Below are positions 6,154 to 55,040 of a stretch of DNA of 64,000 bases, one piece after another. Every line of letters starts with the position of its first letter. Position 1 is the stretch's first letter. The position numbers were made by a program, and so were the translations under genes. The notes below the pieces were generated by a model. That model saw only the letters and a program-made list of their open reading frames with translations. It was not told the DNA's origin and did not search any database. Origin of the DNA: an uncultured Gammaproteobacteria bacterium (GTDB lineage Bacteria > Cyanobacteriota > Vampirovibrionia > LMEP-6097); assembly GCA_964512985.1 (NCBI GenBank), contig CAZELI010000002.1, positions 11,252-75,251 on the forward strand, read 5' to 3'.

Positions 6154-6176
6154 GCGCGCCGAAGGCGCGGAACCAC
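6154..6176. repeat. partial (right-end) copy of the 100 bp GC-rich palindromic element
   Basis: gcgcgccgaaggcgcggaaccac is identical to the right terminus of the copy at 28061-28160. Confidence 0.6.
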
Positions 6177-6217
6177 GATAAAAATGAGATTAGAAATTTT
6201 CTGCTATCCTATACTTT

Positions 6218-9004
6218 GTGTACAAGAAACTAAAATTACTAATAATAATTTGGAGCATTATGATGATGAATACAGCGGTTTTAAGCGCTAAAGAAAGCAA
6301 TAATATAAATATTAAAGGGGTAAAATTTATTAAGTCTTTTGCCGGAATTAGTGAATATCAATTAGATAATGGTCTGAAGATTTTACTTAAACCTAATACT
6401 GATGTTCCTTTATTATCCTGGCAGGTTTGGTATAAGGTTGGTAGCCGTAATGAACCTTTGAATTTAACGGGAATTGCTCACTATTTAGAGCATATAATGT
6501 TTAAAGGTACACAAACTTTCGCGAAAGGTGAGATTGCTCAGGTTATACAGCTTAAAGGTGGAGTATTTAATGCTTTCACTAGTGATGACTATACTGCTTA
6601 TTTCGAAAACTTTGCTCCTGATCAATTAGAGCTGGCTATTAAGATTGAATCTGATCGTATGCAGAATTCTAGGCTCAACGCTGAAGAAATTAATTTAGAA
6701 CGTAGCGTGATTGTCTCTGAGCTTGAAGGTAATAGAAATGATCCGAATAATATTCTATATGAAACGCTGAGAGCGACTGCTTATCAAGTGCATACTTATC
6801 GTAATCCAGTTATTGGTTGGCGTGATGATCTTGAGAATATTAATGCCGAGAACATGCGTGAGTTTTATGAGAATTATTACTATCCTGATAATGCAACTGC
6901 AATTCTTGTAGGTAATTTTGATTCGAGTGTTGCATTAAATCTAATCCAAAAATACTTTGGTAAATATAAACCTAAGAAAAATATCAGAGCGCATGCCCCT
7001 AAAGAACCTGAACAGATAGGTACTAAGAAAGTTGTAATTAAGAATGGTGGCGCTGTAAAGCTCTTGGGGATTGCCTTCCATATTCCTGAGTTCGCTCATG
7101 CAGATATACCTGCTTTAAGTATTATTGGAGATGTGGTGTTTAGTGGAATGACTAGTCATCTGTATCCTAAGTTAGTAGATACTGGATTGGTTTCTGGAAT
7201 ATCTGGTCTCGCTGAGCCTAGTCGTGATCCTGGATTGTTTAGAATCATTGCAAATATCAATGATGAAGCTGATATAGAAAAAGTTGAGCAGATAATTTAT
7301 CAAGAAATAGAAGCAGTGAAGAAGGGTATTACTGAGGAAGACTTGAAACTTGCCAAAGCTAGAGAGGAAGCGTCGTTTATCTATCAACAGGATGGTGTTT
7401 ATGATGAAGGTCTGCAGATAGGATACTTTGAATCGATTTGTAATGATTGGACTAAATATGCAACTTGGGTGAATGAGATTAATGCTGTAACTAATGAAGA
7501 TGTGATGAGAGTCGCTAAGAAATATTTCACTGAGACTAATAAAACTGTGGTGTATTTATTACCAGAAGAAGCTAATAATAGTTTACTAAAACCTGAAAAA
7601 CTCTTGGATATTGAGTTAACTAATACTACTCCAGATACAGAAGCTCATTATGGCTCAGCAACAGTGGATCCTATTAACCCAGATAAGTTGAAACAGCTTA
7701 TGAAGATTAGTCAACCTAAGTATTCTAAGGGAATTAAATATTCTAAGCTTGATCTTAATTTTAAGGAATTGGATTCTGCTATGCCTGGTGTGAAAATCTT
7801 ACATCGTCAAGATCATAGTATTCCTATAATTTATATGAATGCCTATGTTTATGGGGGTTCTGTCAATAATGGAGATGATCTTGGTCTAGCTTATTTCACT
7901 AGTAAAATGTTGTCTCGTGGTACCAAAGCTAAGGATAAATATGAGATAGCAAGGTTATTAGATCTCTATGGTGCTGATATTAGCTTTGAATCAGGGGTGG
8001 AGACTGGTAGAATCCACGTTTCTACTCTTACTAAATATGTACCTGAAGTATTTGGGATTCTTAAAGAGATGATTAGCGAGCCTCGCTTTGATACTACTGA
8101 GTTAGATAGGCTCAAAGTACAGACCATAGCGCAAATCAAACAGGAAGATGATTTCCCGCGTAAGATAGCTAAGCGTGAAATGAAACGTGCTGTATACCCT
8201 AAAAGACATCCATATTATTCATATAGTATTAGTGAAAGAGTTTCTGCTATCCAAAAAATTACTATTGATGATCTAAAGCAATTCTATAAGGCTAACTATA
8301 ATACTAATAATATTCTTGTGTCTGTAGTTGGGGACATCGATACAGCTAAAACACAAGAACTAACTCTAAGTACCTTTAAGGATTGGAATGCTGGTGGTCA
8401 GGGTAACCAGCCGCCAGTAATCCCTAATGTTGAGCTTAAAGGACCTATCGAAGAGATTATTGCTAAAGCCGATAAAACACAGACAGAGATTGTGATGGGG
8501 CATGCTTGCCATATAGATAGAATGAATCCAGATTTCTTCCCTCTCTTGATTGCTAATCAAGCCTTAGGTGGCAGTTCTTTATCTTCTAGGTTGGGAACTG
8601 TGGTTAGAGATGAGAACGGTCTTGTTTATAACGTAAGAACTTCTTTCTCTGCAACGCTTGGTGCTGGTGAGTTTGAAGTAGTTCTAGGTTGTAATCCTAA
8701 GAACACTACCAAAGCTATAGAGTTAACGAAGAAAGTTATTGGAGACTTCTTGAAAGCGGGTATCAATGCTACTGAGCTTGAAATAACGAAGTCCTATTTA
8801 ATTGGTTCTTTTGGTCCAAGAACACTTGCTAGTAATGAAGCTATTGTTGACACTTTATCTCAATTACAACTTTATAAGCTTGGCAATGATTATATTAAAA
8901 CTTATGAAGATAGGATTAACGCGATCACTTTAGAAGATGTGAATCGTGTTGCAAGAAAGTATATTCATCCTGATAAGCTTAATGTGGTGATTGTTGGGCC
9001 GTAA
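6218..9004 (+). CDS. tandem M16-family zinc peptidase (two pitrilysin-like units, PqqL-like)
   Basis: 928 aa with a signal peptide, the HxxEH zinc motif (HYLEHIMFKG) in the first unit and a second inactive-type M16 unit. GTG start. Confidence 0.85.
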   Translation: MYKKLKLLIIIWSIMMMNTAVLSAKESNNINIKGVKFIKSFAGISEYQLDNGLKILLKPNTDVPLLSWQVWYKVGSRNEPLNLTGIAHYLEHIMFKGTQTFAKGEIAQVIQLKGGVFNAFTSDDYTAYFENFAPDQLELAIKIESDRMQNSRLNAEEINLERSVIVSELEGNRNDPNNILYETLRATAYQVHTYRNPVIGWRDDLENINAENMREFYENYYYPDNATAILVGNFDSSVALNLIQKYFGKYKPKKNIRAHAPKEPEQIGTKKVVIKNGGAVKLLGIAFHIPEFAHADIPALSIIGDVVFSGMTSHLYPKLVDTGLVSGISGLAEPSRDPGLFRIIANINDEADIEKVEQIIYQEIEAVKKGITEEDLKLAKAREEASFIYQQDGVYDEGLQIGYFESICNDWTKYATWVNEINAVTNEDVMRVAKKYFTETNKTVVYLLPEEANNSLLKPEKLLDIELTNTTPDTEAHYGSATVDPINPDKLKQLMKISQPKYSKGIKYSKLDLNFKELDSAMPGVKILHRQDHSIPIIYMNAYVYGGSVNNGDDLGLAYFTSKMLSRGTKAKDKYEIARLLDLYGADISFESGVETGRIHVSTLTKYVPEVFGILKEMISEPRFDTTELDRLKVQTIAQIKQEDDFPRKIAKREMKRAVYPKRHPYYSYSISERVSAIQKITIDDLKQFYKANYNTNNILVSVVGDIDTAKTQELTLSTFKDWNAGGQGNQPPVIPNVELKGPIEEIIAKADKTQTEIVMGHACHIDRMNPDFFPLLIANQALGGSSLSSRLGTVVRDENGLVYNVRTSFSATLGAGEFEVVLGCNPKNTTKAIELTKKVIGDFLKAGINATELEITKSYLIGSFGPRTLASNEAIVDTLSQLQLYKLGNDYIKTYEDRINAITLEDVNRVARKYIHPDKLNVVIVGP
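8956..9004 (+). repeat. left copy of a 49 bp perfect direct repeat (the 3' end of the M16 peptidase gene including its stop)
   Basis: aaagtatattcatcctgataagcttaatgtggtgattgttgggccgtaa recurs exactly at 9959-10007. Confidence 0.9.
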
Positions 9005-9958
9005 GTGAGTCTTTGAATGATGTCATTAATACAAGAAATTTTTAATTTTATTTTTGCGCAACCAGGCATAGTTCAAATACTTCTCTTTACTCAAGTATTG
9101 ATTTTGATTATATTCTTACCAAGAATTCTTGTTCTATTAGTTCAATTATTTATAAAGAAAAAGAAGGTTAAAACTATAGAGTTATCGATGACCAGAGATC
9201 AGTTTATAACTTCTTTGAAAAATAAATTGTTTGAAACTAATATAAATTTTGAAAAGATTAATGCAACTAAATTTACTCTCTATGACATTTTTTCTACATT
9301 ATTTATTTTGCCAATTTTGCCATTGAAGTTATTTCTACTAATCAAGAATTTATTTTATAAGTCCAAGAGTAGTACTGAAATTGATATTGAAAAATATCTT
9401 AGAGATTTAAGTATGAAAGGATCATTTCATCTGATCTTTTTAGATAATCCAAATAGAGAGTTTGATTTTGAAAGCTATTTTACTAACAGTGATATTACTA
9501 AATATCCTTTAGCGGGAAAAATAGAGGATAACAATATAAGTCTTTATCTCACACAAAAATATCCAAATGAAAATGTTTATTTTCAACAAGATGCAAAAGC
9601 TTTTTTATATGAAATTAGAATTAAGGAGAACAGTGATCGAAATTTAGTTCTTGAATTATATAAGGAAAAATTTTGGTTTATTAGGGATGCTTTTGATATT
9701 TTATATGATAATTATTTGATAGTTATTCCTAAACATTCAACAATTAGTAAGCTAGCTATTCAGCTATTTATACTTCCTTGTTTTTTTTTCTATTGTATTT
9801 TGCAATTCCAAGCCTAAGAATTTTCTCAGTCTTACCATTAGGTTTACTTTTGTTTGATATTTATTCAACCATAAAACAATCTCAGTTAATAATGAAACAA
9901 AGAAAGTTACTAGATGAGACTGTGATCGATTTAATTACAAAATTATCAAAAAATATTT
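9005..9958 (+). mobile_element. 954 bp very AT-rich insertion bounded by the 49 bp direct repeats; no recombinase gene
   Basis: It is flanked by perfect 49 bp repeats. Its composition is visibly more AT-rich than the flanks. It carries only a membrane-protein ORF. Confidence 0.5.
9017..9817 (+). CDS. hypothetical membrane protein inside the insertion; possibly continues to 9960 after a frameshift at a T9 tract
   Basis: 266 aa ORF with hydrophobic segments. A second ORF (9778-9960) overlaps it at a run of nine T (9781-9789) in another frame. Confidence 0.4.
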   Translation: MMSLIQEIFNFIFAQPGIVQILLFTQVLILIIFLPRILVLLVQLFIKKKKVKTIELSMTRDQFITSLKNKLFETNINFEKINATKFTLYDIFSTLFILPILPLKLFLLIKNLFYKSKSSTEIDIEKYLRDLSMKGSFHLIFLDNPNREFDFESYFTNSDITKYPLAGKIEDNNISLYLTQKYPNENVYFQQDAKAFLYEIRIKENSDRNLVLELYKEKFWFIRDAFDILYDNYLIVIPKHSTISKLAIQLFILPCFFFYCILQFQA

Positions 9959-10007
9959 AAAGTATATTCATCCTGATAAGCTTAATGTGGTGATTGTTGG
10001 GCCGTAA
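9959..10007 (+). repeat. right copy of the 49 bp perfect direct repeat
   Basis: Identical to 8956-9004. It ends immediately before the stop codon of the minus-strand gene at 10008. Confidence 0.9.
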
Positions 10008-11762
10008 TTAAGGTGCTAAGTGGCTACCTTTACTAAGTACTATCAGGCTTTTGTCGTCATTAAACTCTCGAGAGTATTGTAAATATGCTTGAATAATTTT
10101 TTGAGGATTAGTACCAGCGCTTAATACTGGTGTGATAACTGAATTTAGTTGATCAAATCGAGGGGGTATAACTTCTTCACGTTTTAGCTTATCGCCTGAT
10201 TTACTTTTTAATATACCATCTGAAGCAAGAACCAAACCTTCAATATTCTTTTTATCAATAAAACAAACAGTAAATTTTGCGGGATTTTGTTTATGCCAAC
10301 CTTGACCTCGATTCACTACCCCTAAATATGATTTTACTGTACCTTCTCCTGGTATACGATCTGCCGAATTCAAAGAATTTTCAATAATCCCATTAGCATT
10401 AAAAGCAGAAGCAATAGTATCTCCAGCTGAAATTAACATCAATCTTTCACCAAGATCAATAGCCAGGGAAACTGTAGTATTTGCTTCTATAAATTCTTCT
10501 TCTTTATTTTGTGATTTTGTTTGAGTTATTCCAACTGTTTCAATTCTAGTGTTTCTTTCAAGTGGCTCAGCTTTAATCGTTGTAGGTGATTTAATAACTG
10601 TCTCTGGGATTATTTCTTCGCATCTAGATTTAATTTGATCAACTGAATCATTTAAAACTTTCATCGCATTTAGAATCGGCTTATAATCATCAATCAAAAA
10701 CGTTTTCGCAAGCTCATCTAAACTCTTATTCTGATAGAATTTCAAAGATTCATTCTCTAGTTTTTTCAAATCAATAGGTGTATAACCAGCTCTTGTTAAT
10801 GTAGTTCCTTCACCCAATTGACTATAGTCAAACTCATTCCTTCTCTGATTATGAATGTCCCTATTTTTAATAACTAATTTCATCGAACAATCACTGAATT
10901 CATCTTTTGCTAAGTTCAACCCAAGATGCTCTAAATATAAATCCTGTAATTTTTTCTTAGCGTCAATACCTGGTTTTAAGAACTGTCGTAAATTACTAGC
11001 TAATAATGTTTGATAACTATTAGCATCAAATAAATTAGAAAATAATTCTTCAACAGTGGAAATATTCAAGCCTGGTTTAGTTTTTTTTACAAATTTAGAA
11101 CCAAGCTTTTCAAAATCAGCAAACTCTAATTCATGATTTTTAACATGATCAATTACCGCATCTGCTGCGATTTTGCCAGTAGATAATTCTCTATCTAAGC
11201 CAGCTCCACTAATGCCATCTGCAACAGCTGCTAATAATACTGGAGCTTTATTAACATTAGCAGGATTTCTCTGATCTAAACCTACACAATAAGTCGCATC
11301 AGAATTATCACTAAACATTCTACGCTTACCAGCTAAACTTTCTCTCCCCACTGTGAAAGGCTGGTCTTCATTAGCTCCTAAATTGATATTTTTTGCGTTA
11401 ATTAAAATTGGATCAGCAATAGTCCTTAGTAAACGATTTGTATCTCTCAAGGCAGTGACAAAATTAATTTTAAATTTGTCATAAATACTTTTAACTCGTT
11501 CATTTTCATTTTGAACAGAATCGGTAGCTAAATTAAAAATTCCAGCTAAGCTCTCTATAAAGTTAGCAACAGATTGATTAATAATTTTGCTAATTTCAGA
11601 AAAGAACCAGGATGCATAGTCATAACTTAATCCAGAACTAGGAATATCTTTTATTTGAATTTCCTGAACAGCAGCTTTTAATTCAGGCTCAGAAAAATTT
11701 GCATTAATTAAAACCTCTTGCCATCTCGGTATTTGATTGCCAGGAATAGTAGACATGGGCAA
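10008..11762 (-). CDS. PP2C-family phosphatase-like protein with an N-terminal extension and a large internal insert
   Basis: PP2C-like motif series: AAVADGISGAG, ISAGDTIASAF, LVLASDGILKS and a C-terminal DDKSLIVLS. About 230 aa lie between the first two motifs. Confidence 0.55.
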   Translation of the reverse strand: MPMSTIPGNQIPRWQEVLINANFSEPELKAAVQEIQIKDIPSSGLSYDYASWFFSEISKIINQSVANFIESLAGIFNLATDSVQNENERVKSIYDKFKINFVTALRDTNRLLRTIADPILINAKNINLGANEDQPFTVGRESLAGKRRMFSDNSDATYCVGLDQRNPANVNKAPVLLAAVADGISGAGLDRELSTGKIAADAVIDHVKNHELEFADFEKLGSKFVKKTKPGLNISTVEELFSNLFDANSYQTLLASNLRQFLKPGIDAKKKLQDLYLEHLGLNLAKDEFSDCSMKLVIKNRDIHNQRRNEFDYSQLGEGTTLTRAGYTPIDLKKLENESLKFYQNKSLDELAKTFLIDDYKPILNAMKVLNDSVDQIKSRCEEIIPETVIKSPTTIKAEPLERNTRIETVGITQTKSQNKEEEFIEANTTVSLAIDLGERLMLISAGDTIASAFNANGIIENSLNSADRIPGEGTVKSYLGVVNRGQGWHKQNPAKFTVCFIDKKNIEGLVLASDGILKSKSGDKLKREEVIPPRFDQLNSVITPVLSAGTNPQKIIQAYLQYSREFNDDKSLIVLSKGSHLAP

Positions 11763-24863: not shown

Positions 24864-25986
24864 ATGTCCGATCTTTCTGAACAAACCTATGATTTAAATG
24901 AACTTAAGCTTCGTTACTCTTCACTAAAGGAGTATCTTTGACCAAGAAGAGGTCAAAAAAGAGATAGCAGATTTAGAAGCTGAGATGTCTGCGCCGGGGT
25001 TTTGGGATGATACCAATGCTGCACAAGCCAAATCACAAACTCTTGCACAAAAGAAAAATCAATTAGGACAATTTCAAAGTTGGAACAAGCGTCTACAAGA
25101 TATCTTGGATATGGAAGAGTTTCAATCCTCTTCTTCTGATAATGAAGAGAAGCTGCAATATCAAGCAATGATTTTAGATGAGTATTTGTCTTTAAGTAAA
25201 GAATTTAAGGTTTTTGAATTTCAAAAAATGATGTCAGGTGACTATGATAAGTCTGATGCCATAGTTTCTATTAACGCAGGTGCCGGTGGTACGGACGCGC
25301 AGGACTGGGCGGAAATGCTGCTTCGGATGTATACTCGTTGGGCAGAGAATTACCGAAGTTATACTGTTGAATTGTTAGAACGTTCTGATGGAGAGGAAGC
25401 TGGGATTAAATCAGCTACTATAAAGGTGACTGGTCCTTATGCTTATGGATATTTAAGTGCAGAGAAAGGTGTGCATCGTTTAGTACGTAAATCTCCGTTT
25501 AAATCTTCTGCTGACTCTAGGCAAACGAGCTTTGCTGGTTTAGAAGTTACGCCAGTAGTAGCTGATATGTCTAAGATCATTGAGCTTGAGGAAAAAGATC
25601 TTGAGATAGATACAATGCGTTCTGGTGGTGCTGGTGGACAAAACGTTAATAAAGTAGAAACGGCAGTGCGTGTTAAACATATACCAAGCGGCATAGTGGT
25701 GAAATGTACTCAGCAGCGTAGTCAGATGCAGAATAAAGCTAGTGCTTTAGACCTTATTCGTTCCAAGCTACTTGCAATTAAAGAAGCTGAGCAAAAAGCC
25801 AAAATTATTGAGCTTAAAGGGGAATCGGTATCTGCTTCTTGGGGAAACGCTATAAGATCCTATGTTCTAGATGAAGGTAGGGTGAAAGATGTTCGTACTA
25901 AATATGAGACTCGTGATGTGGAATCTGTTCTAAATGGCGATATTGATGCTTTTATAGAGGCATATTTAAGACAAGAAGCGAAGTAA
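24864..25986 (+). CDS. prfB: peptide chain release factor 2, requires programmed +1 frameshift at 24936-24942
   Basis: ATG at 24864 opens a 25-codon frame ending ...AAG GAG TAT CTT TGA C. The +1 frame continues [24 protein letters not shown] into the long ORF, which carries [17 protein letters not shown] (GGQ). An SD-like AGGAG lies upstream of CTT TGA C. Confidence 0.9.
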
Positions 25987-26021
25987 AGTGTCCAAGTGGC
26001 TTAGTGACAGGGTGGCTGAGT
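25987..26021. repeat. single arm of the octamer-repeat element, just after the prfB stop
   Basis: agtgtccaagtggcttagtgacagggtggctgagt shows an 8 nt periodic AGTGnCnn pattern like the arms at 39299, 45732 and 53079. Confidence 0.45.
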
Positions 26022-27817: not shown

Positions 27818-28060
27818 ATTAAACTGTCTCCAAGGGGTTTATTCCAATAAAGGCTATATGTGGTAAGTCCCTCTTATGCATGAAATTTTCAAGTAAAAAT
27901 CCAATAATAGAACTACTAATCTAGTCCTAAAGTCCAGTTAATGAGCTATTTAGATTAATCACAATAGAGAGGAGGGCTGATTATGATTATGGTGAGGTAA
28001 AGGATTAGAACTAACTGCTTATTTATATTTTTATTTAAAATCCCAATTTAGGAAGGGAAA

Positions 28061-28160
28061 GTGGGTTCCGCCGCTTCGCGGCGTTTGCGCTGCGCGCGGC
28101 TGAATGAAAGAAATTATTTAGTAGTCCGCAGGGCGAACCGCGCCGAAGGCGCGGAACCAC
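28061..28160. repeat. 100 bp GC-rich palindromic MITE-like element, copy 1
   Basis: gtgggttccgccgcttcgcggcgtttgcgctgcgcgcggc...AT-rich centre...agtccgcagggcgaaccgcgccgaaggcgcggaaccac. The termini are inverted (GGTTCCGC / GCGGAACC). Internal hairpins are gccgc-ttcg-gcggc and cgcgcc-gaa-ggcgcg. Confidence 0.85.
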
Positions 28161-28217
28161 AATATAAATAAAATCTAGAAATAGAATTGATAAGGCGATG
28201 ATTAGAAGGATTGCTTA

Positions 28218-29090
28218 TTAATCTATAAATAATAATGGTGTTAAAAAGCCGTCTAGGATTACTATTCCTACTATGACTAAAGCTGTGGCCTTAGTAGTCG
28301 TGAGTCCTACTTCTTTAGCTCCTCCACTACAATTAAGTCCCATAGTAACGCTTATTAATAATGCATAAAGGCAAAATACTTCAGTCTTGATTAATGGATA
28401 AAAATATTCTTTAAGACCTATATTCGCCCATGCAGAGTCGAGAAATTCTGCAAACTCTAGATTGATTACTAACTTAGCGACTAGCATTCCAGCAAACATG
28501 CTAACCATGGCTGCTATAGCAAGTATAAAAGGAGCTAATAGTATAGTTGCTAATACTGTAGGAACTAGTAAGAAATATAAAGGATCAATCTTAAGTACTC
28601 GAAGTACGTCAATTTGTTCTGTGACTTTCATAGTCGAGATTTCCGCTGTAAGTGCTGTACCACATCTGGCTGCTATCGCAAAGGCAATGAAAGTAGGAAT
28701 AATTTCGCGCAGGTTAGCTAATGCAATAAGCGCACCTACTAGTTCTCTACCGCCATGTTTAGTTAATTCAATTGCAGTATTATAAGTTAGTATCATACTT
28801 GCTAGTGAACAAAGAGCTATAACCATTAATATGGATTCATAGCCAATGAATAATAACTTAGAGACTAATTGCTCTTTTTGGATTTCACCACGGATTATAT
28901 ATCTAAAAGATTTAAGTAAGTATAAGATCGCTGATCCTAAAACCTCCAGGAAATTAGCTTTGTCTGAGGGAGTGGTAGTTAGATTTAACACTGATGCTAT
29001 AAAATTGTAGCGTATTCCCTGAAACTCAAGTTCATCATATAATAACTTAAGGTGCCAGACAAAAAGCACAATTACATAACTCACAACCAT
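28218..29090 (-). CDS. mlaE: MlaE/Ttg2B-type ABC transporter permease
   Basis: The central motif AARCGTALTAEISTMKVTEQIDVLRVLKIDPLYFLLVPTVLA is typical of MlaE. The true start is probably downstream of the track start, which overlaps the bamA ORF. Confidence 0.75.
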   Translation of the reverse strand: MVVSYVIVLFVWHLKLLYDELEFQGIRYNFIASVLNLTTTPSDKANFLEVLGSAILYLLKSFRYIIRGEIQKEQLVSKLLFIGYESILMVIALCSLASMILTYNTAIELTKHGGRELVGALIALANLREIIPTFIAFAIAARCGTALTAEISTMKVTEQIDVLRVLKIDPLYFLLVPTVLATILLAPFILAIAAMVSMFAGMLVAKLVINLEFAEFLDSAWANIGLKEYFYPLIKTEVFCLYALLISVTMGLNCSGGAKEVGLTTTKATALVIVGIVILDGFLTPLLFID

Positions 29091-31046
29091 ATTTCATTAA
29101 GTCAAGGCTCATTTTATAGCTGCTTCTTAGTGTTGGTTTTGTTTTGTTTGGCTTTGCCTTCTTTTGCAGAAGCGGAGGAAAATTATCAAGGTTTAGTATC
29201 TGAAATAAGAATTAGTGGTAACAGACTAGTAGATGATTCTGCAATCATTGAACAAATAAGGACTTATCCAGGTCGGTCGTTTTCTAGAGATATAGTGATT
29301 GAAGATCTTAAGCGGATCAATGAGATGGGTTATTTTGTTGCTAAAAGTGTTGAAGCCAGACCTTACCAAAAACCAGACGGCAGCATAATTCTAGAATATA
29401 TTGTCGTAGAGAATCCTCCTATCACTGATTTAGTAGTCTATGGTAATACTTTGGTAGGAGAACTCGATAGCTTCTCTTACTTTAATGGTTTGGTCGGGAA
29501 ACCGGAAAACGCTAAATTAATCTCTGAAAGAATTCAAAAGCTAGAGAGAGAATACTACTCAAAGGGCTATATAGTAGCGAGGGTAAAAGATATAGATTTA
29601 GATGAAAGTGGTCTTCTAAAAATTTATATTGATGAAGGCACTATCACTGAAATCCAATATGTTGGTAATAATTTGACTAGAACAAGTTACTTGAAACATA
29701 TAGTCTCTAATACCCAAGCTAATGAACCATATAATGAAGCTAAGTTTGCTAAGGATTATAAGAAGCTCCAAGGCTCGGGCTATTTTGAAAACGTCACCCG
29801 AGTCGTGAAACCTAATGCTGATGGGGAAGGTTACATACTTGAGATCCAGGTAAAAGAGAAGGAGAAATTTACTAGCCTAGGATTAGGAGGTGGTGTTAAC
29901 TCCTCTGCAGGTTTGTTTGGTAATGCTAATTTCTCTAAGGGTAATATTAAAGGCAAGGGAGAAACTTTAAATATTAATGCCATTCTAGGAAGTGGTTATG
30001 GAGCTGGTTCTACGTTTAACACTAATAGTAATCTAGTTCGTACTGGTAGATATACCTCTATTAGTGCATCCTATACTTCTCCGTTCTTTAAAGATAGCGA
30101 TTATATGCTTAAGGAGTTTATTAATTACTCTAAAGGACCTAATTTTACAGTGGATCTTTCTGAGCAGAGCTTGCTTTCAGCTGGTGCCTCTGTATCTAGA
30201 GCTATTGATGATAATCAAAGTATTAGTTATGGAAGCTCTTTAAACTTAATTAATGTGAAGGACAGAGATAGAAAGACTTATATAAATGAAGTGGCTGATA
30301 ATATTTTAGAGGTAGATCATCTTACTAATAGAGATCTCTTCAATGCAGATCCAGATCAATTTCTTGGTGGTAAGAGAGCTATTGCTCTTGCAGAAGCACG
30401 TGCTTTAAGAGACAGCCAGATTGTTAAAGGTAATTTTATAGACTTCACTACTAATTATGCTTATCAAGATTTAGATGATAATTCTAGACCACGAGAGGGT
30501 TTTAAGTTTAGAGCGGGTATGACTCCTACACTAGGACGCGGTGATGTAACAAGCTTCACTAAGCTACATGGAAGTGCTACTCGTTTTATACCATTGCCAT
30601 GGAGATCGACTTTTATATTTAATGTGCGTGGTGATTATGGTCTGCTCGGTACTATTCCACAGTTCTCTAAATTTAGATTGGGGACTAGCACTGGTGTTAG
30701 AGGCTATCGCCAATTTACAGAATTAGGTGTGGGTGATAAATTATTGATTTCTACTGCTGAATATAGAACTCCTATATATAATGTGATCCCTCCATTACAG
30801 AAATTCAAGCTGCTCAAGAATGTCGACTTTGCTTTATTTGCAGACGCAGGAGTTGTTGGTGGTGATAGTAGATTGAACTTAATTACTGATAGATTATCGC
30901 GCGCTGGGGCTGTTGGCTTTGGTATAAGAGTGAATGTCCCATTAGTTGGGGCCTTAAGGTTTGATGTGGGCTTCCCTTTAGTTAAAGCTCTTACAAATAA
31001 TACGAAATTATATAGATTTAACTTTGGTCCAGCGAATTTCTATTAA
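29052..31046 (+). CDS. bamA: Omp85/BamA-family outer membrane protein assembly factor
   Basis: Signal peptide, POTRA-like repeats (ISEIRISGNRLVDDSAI...) and a C-terminal beta-barrel with alternating aromatic pattern ending ...FNFGPANFY. Confidence 0.8.
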   Translation: MPDKKHNYITHNHISLSQGSFYSCFLVLVLFCLALPSFAEAEENYQGLVSEIRISGNRLVDDSAIIEQIRTYPGRSFSRDIVIEDLKRINEMGYFVAKSVEARPYQKPDGSIILEYIVVENPPITDLVVYGNTLVGELDSFSYFNGLVGKPENAKLISERIQKLEREYYSKGYIVARVKDIDLDESGLLKIYIDEGTITEIQYVGNNLTRTSYLKHIVSNTQANEPYNEAKFAKDYKKLQGSGYFENVTRVVKPNADGEGYILEIQVKEKEKFTSLGLGGGVNSSAGLFGNANFSKGNIKGKGETLNINAILGSGYGAGSTFNTNSNLVRTGRYTSISASYTSPFFKDSDYMLKEFINYSKGPNFTVDLSEQSLLSAGASVSRAIDDNQSISYGSSLNLINVKDRDRKTYINEVADNILEVDHLTNRDLFNADPDQFLGGKRAIALAEARALRDSQIVKGNFIDFTTNYAYQDLDDNSRPREGFKFRAGMTPTLGRGDVTSFTKLHGSATRFIPLPWRSTFIFNVRGDYGLLGTIPQFSKFRLGTSTGVRGYRQFTELGVGDKLLISTAEYRTPIYNVIPPLQKFKLLKNVDFALFADAGVVGGDSRLNLITDRLSRAGAVGFGIRVNVPLVGALRFDVGFPLVKALTNNTKLYRFNFGPANFY

Positions 31047-31136
31047 ATAATTTTCTGATCAAACCCATAAAACTTGGATCGGGTTTGGGTTCCGCGATTT
31101 TTTTTAGCTTTCCCTTAATCTTTCAATATATAATAC

Positions 31137-32363: not shown

Positions 32364-32390
32364 GACCAGCTTTCGGGCTGGTCTTTTTAT
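32364..32390 (+). terminator. rho-independent terminator
   Basis: A gaccagc-tttcgg-gctggtc hairpin followed by TTTTTATTT, 37 nt after the stop at 32327. Confidence 0.7.
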
Positions 32391-32458
32391 TTGTAGTAAT
32401 TACGTAACTATTCAGATCTTTATGTATATTTCTATTTTATCCCTAGAACCGGGATGGG

Positions 32459-32558
32459 GTGGGGTTCCGCCGCTTCGCGGCGTTTGCGCTGCGCGCGGCT
32501 TAATATAATGAATTATTTAGCAGTCCGCAGGACAAACGCGCCGAAGGCGCGTAATCAC
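32459..32558. repeat. 100 bp GC-rich palindromic element, copy 2 (degenerate right terminus)
   Basis: The left half is identical to copy 1 (ggttccgccgcttcgcggcgtttgcgctgcgcgcggct). The right end reads gcgtaatcac instead of gcggaaccac. Confidence 0.85.
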
Positions 32559-32617
32559 AACATAAAATGAAATTTAGATAAATCAATGATTATTTGATTA
32601 GCTGAGTAGTTACGTAA

Positions 32618-33145
32618 TTATTTCTTTGGATAATTTAAAGGTTGATTTAATTCATCAACAGGCCCAATGTAATCCTTGCGTAGCGGGAATCCTTCCCATT
32701 TATCTGGGTTGAGTATTCTAGTGAGATTAGGATGTCCTTCGTACTCTATGCCAATCATGTCGTAAGCTTCACGTTCTTGCCAATTAGCACTTGCAAATAT
32801 ATCTGTAAGGCTTGGCACTATTGGTTTATTACGCGGTACTGTTACTTTCAATGCTACAGCGGCTCTAGCCGAACCATCTATACCAAGATTCTCTAATCTA
32901 GTGATAGATTGATAACCATCTTTAACTTCAAGTGCTGTTATAAAATTTAAGAAATCTAACTTTTTAGATTTCTTAAGATCTTTACAAGCTTGCACTAAGT
33001 CCGCTGCTTCTATTGCAATCATCTCTGTGCCACTCTTATCGTTGCCAAGAGCTTTGATCTTAAGACCTTTTTCTTTTAGAAAATTTCCAAACTCACCAAA
33101 TTCTATAGCTGGAGTTTCTGCTGCTACTGCTGCTGTTTCTGACAT
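32618..33145 (-). CDS. nuoC: NADH-quinone oxidoreductase subunit C / NdhJ-like
   Basis: 175 aa with the 30 kDa subunit signature region ANWQEREAYDMIGIEYEGHPNLTRIL. Confidence 0.85.
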   Translation of the reverse strand: MSETAAVAAETPAIEFGEFGNFLKEKGLKIKALGNDKSGTEMIAIEAADLVQACKDLKKSKKLDFLNFITALEVKDGYQSITRLENLGIDGSARAAVALKVTVPRNKPIVPSLTDIFASANWQEREAYDMIGIEYEGHPNLTRILNPDKWEGFPLRKDYIGPVDELNQPLNYPKK

Positions 33146-38671: not shown

Positions 38672-39921
38672 TATTTCAAAATCTCTTCCGCTACTAATCT
38701 TGCAGTATTGTATCCGCTAAGCTTACTCTTTAATTCAGACAAATCAGTTTTAATTTTCTGGTAATAAGCACTATAAGCTCCGTTCTTTTCAAACCAAGAC
38801 TCTGTTTCTGTTACAAAGTTTTTAACGTTAGCCTCATACTGTAAAAATTCTTTAATTATATACTTACCTGCAATAATATTAGCTAAGCCAGCCATAGTGA
38901 TAGTTCTGAAACATAGATAGAGAAGGTAATTGAATAAATTAGACCTGTAACTAAGGAAGTAAGGAGTAGTATAAAGTGCGGCTTCTAGTGTTACTGTTCC
39001 TGAGCAAAGCCAGAGTGCATCAGCGGCTGAGAGTAATTTATGATTAGAACTGAGCATATCTTGTGATTCTAATATTTCGATATGATGACTTTGTTTTCCT
39101 TCAAGTGCCATATTTAAAGGTGTTTTAAGCCCACATTGCTCTAGAAGTGATTTACTTATCGTTGGAGCTTTAGCTAGGATAAATCTAAAATTAATTTCTG
39201 GGTTTCTTTTAATTAACTGCTCTGATGCTTGAATCATTAGTGGAAGCATTTCTTTGATTTCCGCTTTGCGACTGCCAGGAAATAATCCTATTAATGTTTG
39301 AGTGGCTGAGTGGCTGGGTGCTTGGGTGACTGTATTGATTGATAGCCCTCTTCTATATTGGATTTCACCAAATTGCCTCAGAAATTCTTCTTTATTGATT
39401 GGTTTAGCAAGCGAGTCTAAGACTGGGTTTCCTACGTATTTGTATGGAATGCCAGATTTCTGATAGAGCTTTTCTTCTAAGGGTAAAGTACAAAGAACTT
39501 TATCTATATATTTCTTGATGTTATTGATACGCCAAGGTCTAGATGCCCAGATTTGGGGTGCGATAAATTCTATGATTTTAATTTCAGAAGATTGTTTTTT
39601 AATTGCTTGAGCGAGTTGTAAATTAAATCCACCATAATCTACAAGTAAGACTATATCTGGCTTCCAGTTTATAATTTCTGTCGCTATTTCTTGTTTCAGT
39701 GAAAGTATGGTAGAGATATTGGCGATAACTTCACTGATACCAGAGAAACCATAATCTCGGTAATCTTTAATTACTTTCACTCCTAGTTCTTCTAGTATCT
39801 CTGAGCCAAAGGCTCTAATCTCTGCTTCTGGACAGAGTTTGAAGATTTCTATTACAACTCTAGAAGCATGACTCTCGCCGCTTAACTCCCCGCATGAAAT
39901 AAATACTTTTGGTTTAGTCAT
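38671..39921 (-). CDS. lpxB: lipid-A-disaccharide synthase
   Basis: 416 aa with an N-terminal ISCGELSGESHASRVV motif and GT19 family architecture. It contains an octamer-repeat insertion (VTQAPSHSATQT). Confidence 0.85.
   Translation of the reverse strand: MTKPKVFISCGELSGESHASRVVIEIFKLCPEAEIRAFGSEILEELGVKVIKDYRDYGFSGISEVIANISTILSLKQEIATEIINWKPDIVLLVDYGGFNLQLAQAIKKQSSEIKIIEFIAPQIWASRPWRINNIKKYIDKVLCTLPLEEKLYQKSGIPYKYVGNPVLDSLAKPINKEEFLRQFGEIQYRRGLSINTVTQAPSHSATQTLIGLFPGSRKAEIKEMLPLMIQASEQLIKRNPEINFRFILAKAPTISKSLLEQCGLKTPLNMALEGKQSHHIEILESQDMLSSNHKLLSAADALWLCSGTVTLEAALYTTPYFLSYRSNLFNYLLYLCFRTITMAGLANIIAGKYIIKEFLQYEANVKNFVTETESWFEKNGAYSAYYQKIKTDLSELKSKLSGYNTARLVAEEILK
39299..39331. repeat. single-arm octamer-repeat element inside lpxB
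   Basis: tgagtggc tgagtggc tgggtgct tgggtgac t. Read on the gene strand it encodes VTQAPSHSATQT. Confidence 0.6.
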
Positions 39922-44013: not shown

Positions 44014-44093
44014 AACTATATTATATCTAATTAGTAACCACTCACCCATTAAATAATATTTTCTATTAAAAATCCTTCAAACCAGGATGGTGT

Positions 44094-44193
44094 ATGGGTT
44101 CCGCCGCTGCGCGGCGGTTGCGCTGCGCGCGGCTTGAGATATATTTTATTTCAGCAGTCCGCAGGACGAACCGCGCCGCAGGCGCGGAACCAC
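44094..44193. repeat. 100 bp GC-rich palindromic element, copy 3
   Basis: gggttccgccgctgcgcggcggttgcgctgcgcgcggc...agtccgcaggacgaaccgcgccgcaggcgcggaaccac lies between atpH and rpiB. Confidence 0.85.
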
Positions 44194-44217
44194 AAGAAAA
44201 AAATGTGTGTAACTACT

Positions 44218-44751
44218 CTAATTCAGTAATAATGCTCTTAAGTTCTTTAATTTAGCTTTAAGGCTTGAGTCTATTACTTTATTGGCCATCTGAATTTTAA
44301 TACCTGCAATTAAAGATTCATCTATCGTATTATTGATCTCGATTTTTTTCTTAAGACCAGCTTCTAAGCTAGCTCTTATATCCTCTAGTTCATGATCTTG
44401 AAGTACTGATGCTGAGCTAACTTCAGCGAGTTCTATATTGGCTCTGGATAAATAAATCTGTTTATAATTATCAGCAAGAAGTGGCACTAAAGCAATTCTA
44501 CGTTTTTCAAGTAAAACTAATAATGTATTTAAAACTTCTTTCTGTACTTTATCTTTAAAAATCTTGTTAAGTAATTGCTGTTTAACATCGCGACCGTATT
44601 GTGGATTAGCTAAGAAACTTGTTAACTCCTGAGAGCCATTGAATGTATCCTTAACTAGAATAAGATCTTCTAATACTGTTTCACCTTCTCTTAGCTCAGC
44701 AAGAGCCTCTGCGTACTTTTTAGCGATTAAATTGTCTTTTTGGCTTTGCAT
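44218..44751 (-). CDS. atpH: F-type ATP synthase delta (OSCP) subunit
   Basis: 177 aa with an IAKKYAEALAEL start and an OSCP-like C-terminus. It follows the b subunit gene. Confidence 0.8.
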   Translation of the reverse strand: MQSQKDNLIAKKYAEALAELREGETVLEDLILVKDTFNGSQELTSFLANPQYGRDVKQQLLNKIFKDKVQKEVLNTLLVLLEKRRIALVPLLADNYKQIYLSRANIELAEVSSASVLQDHELEDIRASLEAGLKKKIEINNTIDESLIAGIKIQMANKVIDSSLKAKLKNLRALLLN

Positions 44752-45726: not shown

Positions 45727-45731
45727 AATAA

Positions 45732-45799
45732 AGTGTCTAAGTGTCTGAGTGTCTGGGTGGATATGTAGCAGGCACTCACAACCCAGTCACTCAGACACT
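45732..45799. repeat. complete octamer-repeat palindromic element between atpE and the b-prime gene
   Basis: agtgtcta agtgtctg agtgtctg ggtgg - loop - cactcaca acccagtc actcagac act. The arms are largely complementary (about 17 of 19 in the best register, by eye). Confidence 0.8.
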
Positions 45800-45806
45800 G
45801 CTTAAT

Positions 45807-50763: not shown

Positions 50764-50846
50764 AACTACTATAGAATATATAGCCTAACTACTATAAATT
50801 ATATAGTGCAACTACTATAAAAAATATGGTATAACTACTATATATA
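50764..50846 (+). repeat. four phased 23 bp direct repeats directly upstream of the fic start codon
   Basis: aactactata starts at 50764, 50787, 50810 and 50833, an exact 23 bp spacing. The units also share downstream A/T-rich similarity (aactactata-r-aa-w-atata). Confidence 0.75.
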
Positions 50847-52322
50847 ATGGTTAACCTTAAGGAACTAGAACGAGATGCTAAAGTTTGGCTCAATAAGGAG
50901 CTCAAGAAATCTAGAATTGTATTTGAGAAGCAAACAATACCAAGTGAAATATATAACTATCTTAAAACTAAATCTTTAATTGCTGATCTTACAAAACAAT
51001 ATGTTTTTATTAAATCAGAATATGATAATGAAATAAATGCTTTTCGTAATAATTTCTGGTTGATAATTTTTCAATATCTAAATTTAGCCTTTGATAATAA
51101 TTGGTATTTAACTGGTCATTATGCTTATAAATTTATGGTGGAAGATTTTAGTCTAGCAAGTAAACAGTTAACAATATCTACGCAAGCTAAATCCAATCGT
51201 ATGCTTAGTTTACTTGATGGTGTTCAGATACTTGCTAGCTATGATAAAGATTTTGAAAGTAAGCCTTTAATTAGTAAAAGTTTCTTTGATGAAAAGATTG
51301 AATTATTAAAACCAGAATATTTATTAATCAATTCTAGTAAAAATGATTACCATAATTATAAATCTGAATTAATATCTATTATTAAAAGTTCTGAACGTGA
51401 TGAAGCTTATATAGTGAATTACTTTACAGAAAACAGTTCACCAGTTTTACTTACAAGATTAATAGGAGCACTTAGAGATTTAGAAGACTTTACTCTTAGG
51501 ATTGAGCTTGAAGAGTTGCTTAAGCTCTCTGGCACACAGATTAAGATAGAGAGTCCTTTTGATAGTTTTATTCTACTAGAATCAAGTGAAAGACCTGCCT
51601 ATCTTGCTAGGTTTGAGATATCGATGACTAAAGCGATAGAAACCCTATCTAAGCTGAAAAAACCAAAGCGTTTAAGTAAGAGATTTACTGTTGAAGATCT
51701 CGATGCGATAGTTATCGATGAAACCTACCATAGTTTAACCATAGAGGGTTATACCGTAACTCGTGCTTTAATTGAATTTTTACAAAACGAAGAATCCTTA
51801 AATAATGCTAGTGAACTACGAGATCAACTGGCTGCTAAGGGTTTTATGAATGCTCTTGCTTATATTCGTAAATTGATTACGGCTAAATTTGTTATTCATG
51901 AAAATCTAGCAAAAAAACTCTTCGAAGAACTCTGGAAACCTAGTATTAATGCTGGTTCTATTAATACTAAGTTTGATATTTATCGTAAACATATGGTGGC
52001 TATTAAAGGCGCGCAGTATGTGCCACCTAGTCATGAGAAAGTACCTTATATGATAGATGAGGTTTTTGATTATGCTCGTAAGATTACTAATGGATTTGAG
52101 CTGGCAATATTCTTGCATTATTTTTATGTGGGAGTACATCCTCACGCTGACGGTAATGGACGTATTTCTCGTTTCTTGATGAACCTTGCTTTGATCCAGG
52201 ATAAATATCATTGGCTTACTATTCCGTCTGAAGATCGTAAGAATTATTTTGGTGCTTTAGAACGCTCTCAGTTAGAGGATGATATTAGTTATTTTGCGGA
52301 GTATATTGTTAGTCAATATTAA
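50847..52322 (+). CDS. fic: Fic-domain protein with an internal inhibitory-helix motif
   Basis: The active-site motif HPHADGNGRISRF follows the HxFx(D/E)GNGRxxR pattern. An upstream SLTIEG matches the (S/T)xxxE(G/N) auto-inhibition motif. A large N-terminal region of about 290 aa is unassigned. Confidence 0.8.
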   Translation: MVNLKELERDAKVWLNKELKKSRIVFEKQTIPSEIYNYLKTKSLIADLTKQYVFIKSEYDNEINAFRNNFWLIIFQYLNLAFDNNWYLTGHYAYKFMVEDFSLASKQLTISTQAKSNRMLSLLDGVQILASYDKDFESKPLISKSFFDEKIELLKPEYLLINSSKNDYHNYKSELISIIKSSERDEAYIVNYFTENSSPVLLTRLIGALRDLEDFTLRIELEELLKLSGTQIKIESPFDSFILLESSERPAYLARFEISMTKAIETLSKLKKPKRLSKRFTVEDLDAIVIDETYHSLTIEGYTVTRALIEFLQNEESLNNASELRDQLAAKGFMNALAYIRKLITAKFVIHENLAKKLFEELWKPSINAGSINTKFDIYRKHMVAIKGAQYVPPSHEKVPYMIDEVFDYARKITNGFELAIFLHYFYVGVHPHADGNGRISRFLMNLALIQDKYHWLTIPSEDRKNYFGALERSQLEDDISYFAEYIVSQY

Positions 52323-52352: not shown

Positions 52353-55040
52353 ATGAACGAATATAACCCTAAATTAATTGAAGCTAAATGGCAAAAACTC
52401 TGGGAAGAGTCTGGTATCTATAAGTTTGACGATAAACCTGATAATGCTAAGCGTTTTTATTCACTAGTAATGTTTCCTTATCCTTCTGGGAATTTGCATA
52501 TGGGGCATATGCGAGTTTATACAGTTTCGGATTTGATTTCCCGTTATAAAACGATGCAAGGTTATAAGGTACTTAATCCTATGGGCTTTGATGCTTTTGG
52601 TTTGCCAGCAGAGAACGCTGCTATCGAGCGTGGTGTACATCCAGGCAAGTGGACTGACTCAAACATCGCTTATATGCGTGATGAGCAGCTTAAACGCATG
52701 GGTACTAGCTATGACTGGTCGCGTGAGGTGATTTCTTGTCACGAAGATTACTATAAATGGACTCAATATTTATTTCTCAAGTTATACGAGAAGGGATTAG
52801 CCTATCAGAAAGAAGCGCCAGTGAACTGGTGTCCAGAATGTAACACGGTACTTGCTAATGAGCAGGTAGAAGATGGCATGTGCTGGCGCCATACTAATAC
52901 TCCCGTAAATAAACGCATGATGAAGCAATGGTTCTTGCGCATCACTGATTATGCAGAAGAATTACTTAATGACCTAGATAAGTTAGAACACTGGCCTGAA
53001 AGCGTTAAGACTATGCAACGTAATTGGATAGGGCGTAGTGTCGGTGCTGAAATTGATTTTGAAATTTGTCAAAGTGGCGGAGTGTCTGAGTGTCTGAGCG
53101 ACAGAGTAACTGACCCAGCCACCCAGTCACCCAGCCACTCAATTACAGTTTATACTACTAGACCTGATACGGTTTATGGAGTGACTTATATGGTGCTTGC
53201 ACCAGAACATAAATTAGTTAAAGGACTTACTACTAAGGATCGCCTTGCAGAAGTAGAAACATATATTAAAGAGTCTTCTAGTAAGTCTGAGATAGAGCGT
53301 ACTGCTGAAGGTCGCAAGAAGACTGGAGTCTTTACTGGCGCTTATTGTATTAATCCTTATACTGAAGAAAAAATTCCAGTATGGATAGCAGATTATGCTT
53401 TAGTAGATTACGGTACTGGTGCGGTGATGGCAGTGCCTGCACATGATGATAGAGATTGGGAGTTTGCAAAGGAATTTGGATTGCCGGTAAGGGAGGTAAT
53501 TAGAGTGACCGAGTGTCCGAGTGTCCGAGTGTCTGAAAGTTCAGTCACTCAGTCACCCAGCCACTCAGTCACTAAAAATGCTTACACTGGTCCTGGAACA
53601 ATGATCAACAGCCAACAGTTTAATGGTCTGGATAATGAAACTGCTAAGCAGAAGATCGTAAAATATGGCTCAGAGCAAGGCTTTGCGCGAGAGACTGTTA
53701 AATATAGATTACGCGATTGGTTGATTAGTCGTCAGAGATATTGGGGTTGTCCGATTCCATTAGTAGAAGCTGAATCAGGCGAGATAGTAGCTGTCCCTTA
53801 TGAATCGCTTCCAGTGAAGCTTCCATTAGATATAGACTTTAGCCTTGCTAAGTCTGAAGGTGGTTCTATATTGGCTAATAAACCTGATTGGTATAATGTC
53901 ACTCTTCCTGATGGACGTAAGGCTAAGCGCATCACTGATACTATGGATACTTTCATGTGTTCATCATGGTATTTCTTGCGTTATCCTGATGCTCATAATT
54001 TAGAGAAGCCATTTGCTAAAGATCAAGTGTTTCCTGTTGATCAATATGTGGGTGGTATTGAACATGCGATCTTACATCTCTTGTATTCTAGGTTTTTTAC
54101 TAAGGCATTACGTGATTGTGGGATGCTAGATTTCTCGGAACCTTTTACTAGATTGCTTTCTCAAGGGATGGTAGTTAAGTATTCAGAGAAAGAAAACAAG
54201 ATAGTGAAGATGTCTAAATCTCGCGGGAATGTTGTGGGTACTAATGAGTTCTTTGATGAATATGGTGCAGATGCAGCTAGATTGTTTATATTATTCGCTG
54301 CTCCAGTAGAAGCTGAAGTAGAGTGGGTTGATGAAGGAGCCCAAGGGCAATATAGATTTATTAATAGAGTTTGGAGGATGTATGCTGCGTTGAGTTCGGC
54401 ATTTAATACGACCTCATCTAGTGAAGAAATCGACTTTAATGCTCTTTCTCCAGCTAATCAAGAGATTCTCCGTATTTTTCATTTTACGCTTAAGTCTATT
54501 ACTGAGGATCTTAGTCCTGAGCGTAATGGCTTTAATACTGCGATTGCTCGTATGTTTGAGTTTGTGAATGCAATGTACAAGTATATGAACGCAAAGGGCT
54601 TTGATGTAGGTAAAGGTATATTAAATGATGAAGATAGTTTAGTAGTGAAACATGTTCTGGTGAATTTTATTAAAACACTTGCACCGTTCACGCCACACTT
54701 AGCAGAGGAACTATGGCAAATATATAGTGTCCGATTGACTGAGAGTCTGAGTGACCGGAACCCAGTCACCCAGTCACCTAGTCACTTAGTCACTAATTCT
54801 GTACACTTGCAACGTTGGCCTATATATAATCCTAATTATTTAGAATCTAAGACTGTTAATTTAGTATTGCAAATCAAAGGTAAAAAAGTAGATGTTATAG
54901 AAATAGCTAAAGACCTCTCAGAGAAAGACCTTGAGCAATTAGCTATGGATAATGAGAAGATGAAGAAACGTTTAGAAGGATTGGATATTAAGAAGGTTAT
55001 TATAGTACCAAATAAATTAGTTAATGTGGTAGCAGGTTAA
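52353..55040 (+). CDS. leuS: leucyl-tRNA synthetase carrying three in-frame repeat-element insertions
   Basis: 895 aa with HMGH ([11 protein letters not shown]) and KMSKS motifs plus a CP1 editing domain (TTRPDT). Confidence 0.95.
53079..53140. repeat. octamer-repeat palindromic element inside leuS, copy 1
   Basis: ggagtgtc tgagtgtc tgagcgac agagtaac tgacccag ccacccag tcacccag ccactc. It encodes [21 protein letters not shown] just before the conserved TVYTTRPDT. Confidence 0.8.
53503..53573. repeat. octamer-repeat palindromic element inside leuS, copy 2
   Basis: gagtgacc gagtgtcc gagtgtcc gagtgtct gaaagttca gtcactca gtcaccca gccactca gtcact. It encodes [23 protein letters not shown]. Confidence 0.8.
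54726..54794. repeat. octamer-repeat palindromic element inside leuS, copy 3
   Basis: agtgtccgattgactgagagtctgagtgaccggaacccagtcacccagtcacctagtcacttagtcact encodes [23 protein letters not shown]. Confidence 0.8.

Follow-up and report, generated by a model that had tools for sequence, protein, structure and literature searches.

The window, by which we mean the whole 64,000-nucleotide stretch of DNA analyzed here, encodes a bacterial SRP RNA, tRNA-Cys and dnaA, and possesses the cyanobacteria-type features of an NdhJ-like NuoC and of ATP synthase b/b′/delta genes. The best named relatives of the encoded DnaA and PolA are MAGs of Candidatus Melainabacteria, Caenarcaniphilales and Obscuribacterales; together with the cyanobacteria-type genes, these relationships point to an uncultured non-photosynthetic relative of the cyanobacteria as the host. 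The dnaA gene (60461–61906) is situated close to the right-hand boundary of the window, yet the cumulative GC skew climbs throughout and shows no switch; either replication may start at a site away from dnaA, or the skew may be weak in this organism. The window sequence is also present in independent ENA metagenome contigs.

Interspersed with the genes are five members of a repeat family, three full copies and two fragments in 64 kb, all on the plus strand. The first-pass annotation had placed three full 100-bp copies at 28061–28160, 32459–32558 and 44094–44193, and a right-end fragment at 6154–6176; each of the four was found where described, and the intergenic placement was borne out for all copies. 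Diagnostic 17–21-mers drawn from the two arms and the core block are present 3–4 times in the window, against 0.00–0.01 occurrences expected from dinucleotide shuffles. The reported contrast between GC-rich arms (64–76% GC) and AT-rich surroundings (36% GC for the window, 14–27% for the centre of the element) was equally apparent, and the two local hairpins were confirmed, with a long hairpin also present. The description of the copies as near-identical was overstated, as the pairwise core identity is 85–88%. The 100-bp length also required correction: the unit spans 183–210 bp, with ~50 bp more beyond each end originally given, and the supposed inverted termini, GTGGGTTCCGC and GCGGAACCAC, form an internal palindrome, the true ends lying ~50 bp farther out. 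Alignments between the window and 13 MAG loci are confined to the element, which in these comparisons is ~200 bp long rather than 100.

Extent and distribution of the repeat family

A modular organization emerges from the full-length copies. The unit starts with a terminal GTAACTACTCAC(C), followed by an AT-rich left module that holds a TATAAT and a small hairpin, ATCCC-N7-GGGAT; the 100-bp GC core comes next, and is followed by an AT-rich right module, ACATAAAATGAGATTTAGATAGAT..., and by the inverted terminus (C/G)TGAGTAGTTAC. Copy 2 (32404–32613, plus strand, 210 bp; nhmmer E=5e-57) is the most complete, with a left TIR GTAACTATTCAG (32404–32415), the small hairpin at 32439–32455, the GC core at 32459–32558, the AT-rich right module and a right TIR CTGAGTAGTTAC (32602–32613). 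An identical copy 2 is held by one of the independent ENA contigs (L001), and one such contig ends inside copy 2, as a repeat would. Copy 1 (28008–28205, plus strand, 198 bp; nhmmer match 28009–28200, E=5e-51) carries degenerate ends, GAACTAACTGC (28008–28018) and GCGATGATTAG (28195–28205), on either side of its GC core (28061–28160). Copy 3 (44034–44216, plus strand, 183 bp; nhmmer E=6e-51) has a short right module; its left TIR GTAACCACTCAC (44034–44045) precedes a variant of the small hairpin, ATCCT-N7-AGGAT (44072–44088), and the GC core (44094–44193), and its right TIR GTGTGTAACTAC (44205–44216) is diverged.

The two fragments are truncated at opposite ends. The right-end fragment truly reaches to ~6199 by nhmmer, and the resulting 5′-truncated remnant (6154–6199, plus strand; model positions 139–186, E=4e-7) comprises the final 23 nt of the right GC arm and part of the right module, without a TIR. 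The fifth member, a left-end fragment at 31043–31098 (plus strand), was detected by an nhmmer profile built from the full-length copies (model positions 20–72, E=0.002); this 3′-truncated remnant consists of the left module and GGGTTCCGC, then a T-run, and lies directly 3′ of the stop codon of a bamA-like gene.

The whole unit aligns to its own reverse complement, and is thus a diverged long palindrome; it comprises two ~95-bp arms around an AT-rich centre tolerant of indels and nested insertions. The centre accepts insertions of 60–110 bp, among them a nested copy of another small palindrome. This second palindromic repeat, AGACCTCTTTCGAAACCGCAGGTTTCGAAAGAGGTCT, occurs in MAG CAYPGT01 at loci L019 (~2840–2880) and L026 (~2557–2592), nested in the AT-rich centre of one copy and beside another. 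Truncated and internally deleted copies exist, and assemblies break at copies. Sequence conservation is uneven, with 85–88% identity in the GC core versus 68–75% over the whole element. A protein-coding reading was rejected: a 38-codon frame that runs through copy 2 is broken by an indel in copy 3, indels break any reading frame shared across copies, and the centre differs in length by up to ~100 bp.

A genome-collection scan with a 23-nt core pattern, covering one genome per species, returned 39 stretches, 13 of which carry the element. All 13 come from two low-GC MAGs, CAYPGT01 and CAZKAT01 (SRP150892), which together hold at least 14 copies; the remaining stretches, in records of 53–74% GC, hold only the 23-mer. 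The core pattern had no match in JGI metagenomes and viral contigs, and blastn against plasmids gave none. Two variants of the right arm, GCGGAACC and GCGTAAC, are both present in the window organism and in MAG CAYPGT01, so that the subfamilies either predate the split of the hosts or were transferred between them. A scan with a right-arm pattern added one diverged copy, on a contig of assembly JACCDV01 (L055, 4643–4759). This is a decayed member in which the right arm alone is recognizable, with 13-bp direct repeats, TTTTTTGATAGAA, on both sides, and its orientation to the upstream gene is the opposite of the usual one.

The contigs of one of these MAGs, CAYPGT0100000xx (L004–L040), were deposited as ‘uncultured Gammaproteobacteria bacterium SRP150892_co2_480’. 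Their best named TopA matches are from Melainabacteria and Caenarcaniphilales, and the CAYPGT01 TopA is 90% identical to that of the organism represented by locus L044, a melainabacterial relative. The gammaproteobacterial label is contradicted by this match, and, judged from the protein sequence, looks wrong.

Repeats of other kinds are also present in the window. Tandem-octamer hairpin elements, in which (GAGTGTCT)n is followed by the complementary (CCCAGTCA)n, lie at 25986–26018, 39291–39316, 45730–45806, 53063–53154, 53502–53580 and 54724–54801. Three of these are inside the leuS ORF (52353–55040), where the translation reads through 53063–53154 in frame; similar arrays occur within leuS of a relative (L043), and none in the CAYPGT01 loci. 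A 23-bp repeat whose core is AACTACTATA occurs four times in tandem (50764–50848) immediately 5′ of a Fic-domain gene at 50847; this core resembles the terminus GTAACTACTCA of the dispersed repeats, and the tandem repeats could be binding sites of a regulator or transposase type, or the likeness could be coincidence. Finally, a 54-bp direct repeat (8956–9009 and 9959–10012, 96% identical) duplicates the 3′ end of an M16-peptidase gene and encloses ~1 kb with an ORF (9017–9817) lacking any Pfam match; the arrangement resembles an insertion by which the end of the peptidase gene was restored.

Termini, target sites and the IS66 family

All three full copies in the window are bounded by TIRs of the type GTAACTACTCA(G/C)C; the two TIRs of copy 1 and the right TIR of copy 3 are degenerate. 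The TIR pair of copy 2, GTAACTAYTCAG...CTGAGTAGTTAC, recurs as the same motif in L004, L018, L026 and L028. At each of the three copies, an 8-bp direct repeat that matches at 7/8 positions abuts the TIRs. Copy 1 is flanked by AAGGATTA (28000–28007) and AAGGATTG (28206–28213), the latter 4 nt from the mlaE stop codon (28218–28220). Copy 2 lies between GTAATTAC (32396–32403) and GTAATTAT (32614–32621), with the nuoC stop codon (32618–32620) inside the right duplication; similarly, of the repeats TCTAATTA (44026–44033) and TCTAATTC (44217–44224) around copy 3, the right one contains the stop codon (44218–44220) of atpH, which encodes the delta subunit. We estimate that AT-rich DNA would yield a 7/8 match at one fixed position by chance with a probability of ~1e-3. 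As the mismatch always falls at position 8, the true duplication length could be 7 bp. No trace of a duplication was seen at two MAG copies that possess both TIRs, L004 (4183–4376) and L028.

Syntenic loci from relatives of the host were obtained through PolA homologues, namely L044 (PolA 89% identical) and L045 (81%). The copy 2 site is empty in both: the spacer between a 158-aa ORF and nuoC is without exactly 32395–32617, and the flanks align, including a shared bidirectional terminator. The spacer between a 120-aa ORF and mlaE likewise is without copy 1 in both relatives. A third empty site was found for the MAG copy of L028, located upstream of topA and absent in L048 and L050, two loci retrieved via TopA homologues. 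An nhmmer search detected no family members in ~95 kb from the two relatives, against five in the 64-kb window. The clean empty sites and this absence of members from relatives indicate lineage-specific insertions. Taken together, the TIRs, the 8-bp target-site duplications and the empty orthologous sites support the original view of the repeats as a dispersed, non-autonomous, MITE-like family, and the family is real and recently mobile.

The duplication length and a terminus that starts with GTAA suggested the IS66 family as a candidate, which was then tested. An IS66-family element of the Geobacillus plasmid pHTA426 has the ends GTAACTATTCAGCCC and GTATCTATTCAGCCC, is flanked on both sides by AACTCGTC as an 8-bp duplication, and encodes a 485-aa transposase that matches PF03050 and NF033517. 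A homologue from the cyanobacterium Leptolyngbya boryana (p2) carries GTAACTACTCAGG at both ends, with a perfect 8-bp duplication, ATCAGCGG, and a homologue from Bacillus thuringiensis pLM4 carries GTAACTACTCAGC at both ends. The right end of copy 2 reads GTAACTACTCAGC, identical to the pLM4 TIR at 13/13 positions, and its left end, GTAACTATTCAG, agrees with pHTA426 at 12/12; the TIR, GT(A/G)ACT(A/G)(C/T)TCAGC, agrees with L. boryana at 12/13. The duplication of the window copies, 8 bp or possibly 7, can be set beside the reference-element duplications AACTCGTC, ATCAGCGG and CCTCGATG. ISDge4 of Deinococcus geothermalis, which belongs to the ISBst12 group of the IS66 family, has TIRs GTGACTACTCAGCA and GTAACTGCTCAGCA and generates an 8-bp direct repeat (PMC12898284).

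Hence, although no named family had been recognized at first, the ends are shared with single-ORF IS66-family ISs, and we are confident that the repeats constitute a non-autonomous MITE of ~185–210 bp with TIRs of the single-ORF IS66 branch (ISBst12/ISDge4/ISGka4-like). With these ends and the matching duplication length, the MITE is presumably mobilized in trans by an IS66-family DDE transposase. The first-pass annotation had reported no transposase in the window; Pfam/NCBIfam scans, an IS66 tblastn and a Y1 phmmer search agree in finding none. It had also proposed a search for a full-length IS with matching termini. IS66-family ISs with such ends exist outside the host; across the window and the fetched loci, tblastn detected neither an IS66-family transposase nor a full-length parent, and mobilization in trans is proposed on this account. 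The transposase, encoded elsewhere in the genome, would bind the ~13-bp GTAACTACTCAGC termini and cut an AT-rich target with an 8-bp stagger, and the MITE would then integrate and leave 8-bp direct repeats behind.

The GC core, its placement and rival explanations

The 100-bp feature first reported corresponds to the GC-rich inner part of the MITE, predicted to form a hairpin of ~33 pairs. Folding of the plus strand gives a single long hairpin for the core (−54 to −62 kcal/mol, z −2.8 to −5.6); the structure of the minus strand is poorer, owing to several G-U pairs. In an alignment of nine cores, 93% of cells are paired and three pairs exhibit compensatory double changes (C-G to A-U, U-A to G-C and U-A to G-C). 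The covariation score was reached by 5/500 shuffles, and the same level is attained in 5–25% of unconstrained related-sequence alignments in the tool's trials. Uncompensated mismatches occur in several copies, and in two the long hairpin gives way to local ones. These data provide modest support for maintenance of the palindrome, with selection on RNA, selection on single-stranded DNA and hairpin-templated repair all compatible. Neither strand has an intrinsic terminator after the hairpin. We also considered, and rejected, an sRNA with its own promoter: the left module offers a TATAAT, but its −35 position coincides with the TIR or lies beyond it, and a promoter scan stayed within shuffle expectation. 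As a speculation, the TATAAT may be a remnant of the promoter of the parent transposase.

Placement relative to genes follows a pattern. In 13/17 copies, the right end faces the 3′ end of a converging gene, and copies located between co-directional genes share this right-end-to-gene-3′ orientation in 10/11–12 cases, for which our binomial estimate of chance is ~0.006–0.02. In five well-defined cases, the insertion lies 0–4 nt from a stop codon, and in L004 the TAA of the TIR itself serves as the stop codon. Copy 2 is situated between the nuoC stop codon and a bidirectional terminator (32364–32383), and should thus be transcribed within the nuoC 3′ UTR. When orientation was compared with both transcription and replication, as the first-pass annotation had suggested, gene direction fitted better than the sign of the local GC skew: the element strand has a positive skew across the entire window and a negative one in 10/13 MAG loci, and an orientation set by replication was rejected for this inconsistency. 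The bias towards stop codons and a fixed orientation could reflect either target preference or selection.

The copies lie in 3′ untranslated regions and would be co-transcribed; in the transcript, the hairpin could block 3′ exonucleases in the manner of REP or Correia sequences, or could cause pausing or termination. Extending this inferred role, the GC core might be an exapted functional module rather than inert cargo, spread behind genes by the MITE and serving, for example, to stabilize the 3′ UTR, to pause or terminate transcription or to insulate against convergent transcription. We consider this possible but rather unlikely; it would explain the higher conservation of the core relative to the whole element, the shared orientation in 10/11–12 cases and the insertions 0–4 nt from stop codons. 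The difference in conservation is not predicted by plain neutral decay of a MITE, and counts against the IS66-type MITE reading, as do the degenerate ends of copy 1, the two MAG copies with TIRs and no duplication, the recurrent mismatch at position 8, the lack of an IS66-family transposase in the searched loci and the L055 member with its lone right arm and 13-bp direct repeats.

Several other origins were weighed against the IS66-type MITE. Were the copies structured ncRNA genes or cis-regulatory 3′-UTR RNAs, kept for their RNA rather than as mobile DNA, then the very stable plus-strand fold, the three compensatory pairs among 93% paired cells, a core better conserved than its flanks and the orientation bias among co-directional copies would all follow. 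The first-pass annotation had named such a family as the outcome that would overturn its reading. However, no Rfam family matches the element at the gathering score, and at a relaxed E≤10 the best match has E≥2, far under thresholds; the covariation score is of a level seen in unconstrained alignments, and neither a canonical terminator nor a convincing promoter was found. Clean empty sites in close relatives, target duplications, truncations and nested copies fit mobile DNA. An origin as RNA genes is therefore improbable, and an RNA role is compatible with exaptation of the MITE rather than being an alternative to its origin. A very improbable origin is that of REPIN/REP-type repeats, in which two inverted GC-rich REP units in a hairpin are mobilized as single-stranded DNA by a RAYT (HUH/Y1). 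The architecture is reminiscent of this, as the GC arms are inverted copies of one ~40-nt unit, each with a 5–7-bp GC stem, that form a long hairpin at intergenic sites. RAYT-like systems are also present in the clade: L045 (19530–20655) carries a 312-aa Y1_Tnp gene (PF01797) with an HYH motif and inverted 20-bp repeats, GACGTTACTCCGTACCGTT. Those flanking repeats are nevertheless unrelated in sequence to the element, and a phmmer search of the window and of the MAG loci detected no Y1 transposase. HUH/Y1 elements have neither target duplications nor TIRs, both of which the window copies possess, and the termini match IS66-family elements; membership in the REPIN/REP-RAYT class was rejected on these grounds.

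The differences between core and outer modules invite yet another explanation, a two-layer chimera in which a small mobile element in its own right, the 100-bp GC palindrome, inserted into an AT-rich IS66-type MITE and now travels with it. There is a sharp contrast between core and modules in both GC content and conservation, the MAG copies L008 and L019 have a core without a recognizable left module, and the core remnant of L055 sits between 13-bp direct repeats. Against this stand junctions between core and modules that are the same throughout the canonical copies and the two window fragments, the absence of a duplication flanking the core, and the alignment of the whole unit with its own reverse complement. 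Furthermore, the left flank of L019 is similar to the right module in inverted form, and L039 has an internal deletion from TIR to core, which identifies these as derivatives of the full unit; we assign the chimera a very small probability. Integron attC sites were also rejected, as the arms, GGGTTCC...GGAACC, place GTT on the 5′ side and AAC on the 3′ side, the reverse of RYYYAAC...GTTRRRY; an attC cassette array was rejected because the copies lie 4–12 kb apart among housekeeping genes.

The IS66-type MITE is an ordinary kind of element that leaves general principles as they are, and represents a new family. It is previously undescribed in Melainabacteria/Vampirovibrionia, an uncultured group with barely charted mobile DNA, and it is itself tied to the single-ORF IS66 branch, about which little work has been done. 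The copies explain why assemblies of such genomes break at those sites, and they make insertion-polymorphism markers between sister lineages available. The stop-codon bias and fixed orientation offer a testable case of target choice or of selection on a transposon-borne RNA hairpin.

Comparison with known mobile elements

Correia elements (CREE/NEMIS) of Neisseria are short non-coding MITEs with TIRs that lie beside genes and are co-transcribed; their hairpins serve as substrates of RNase III and can influence both termination and the stability of mRNAs. The window family likewise consists of short non-coding MITEs with TIRs, located beside genes, folding into hairpins and predicted to be co-transcribed. 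The two differ in that Correia elements have a TA duplication and unrelated 26-bp TIRs, are not known to have a GC-rich core within an AT-rich element, and have a different or unknown transposase family. REP/BIME/REPIN sequences with their RAYTs are paired inverted GC-rich hairpin units in 3′ untranslated or intergenic positions, with possible mRNA stabilization. Paired inverted GC hairpin units, the long hairpin and the 3′-untranslated or intergenic location are common to both systems; REPINs, however, are not known to have TIRs or to duplicate their target, and they rely on a RAYT gene flanked by the repeats, whereas the window family possesses TIRs and 8-bp duplications.

The family shows the features by which MITEs are recognized: at 183–210 bp its members are under ~300–500 bp, and they are non-coding and multi-copy, with TIRs, target duplications and insertion polymorphism in the form of empty sites. 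In common with bona fide members of the single-ORF IS66 group, the TIRs start with GTAA/GTGA and are accompanied by 8-bp direct repeats. Set against the individual ISs of that group (ISDge4 and those of pHTA426, L. boryana p2 and pLM4), the MITE thus has the TIR and the 8-bp duplication in common. The ISs carry a transposase and measure ~1.5–1.6 kb, whereas the MITE, at 183–210 bp, is without a transposase gene; by-eye comparisons revealed no subterminal similarity, and, unlike in the IS66 ISs, the interior of the MITE is a GC-rich long palindrome.
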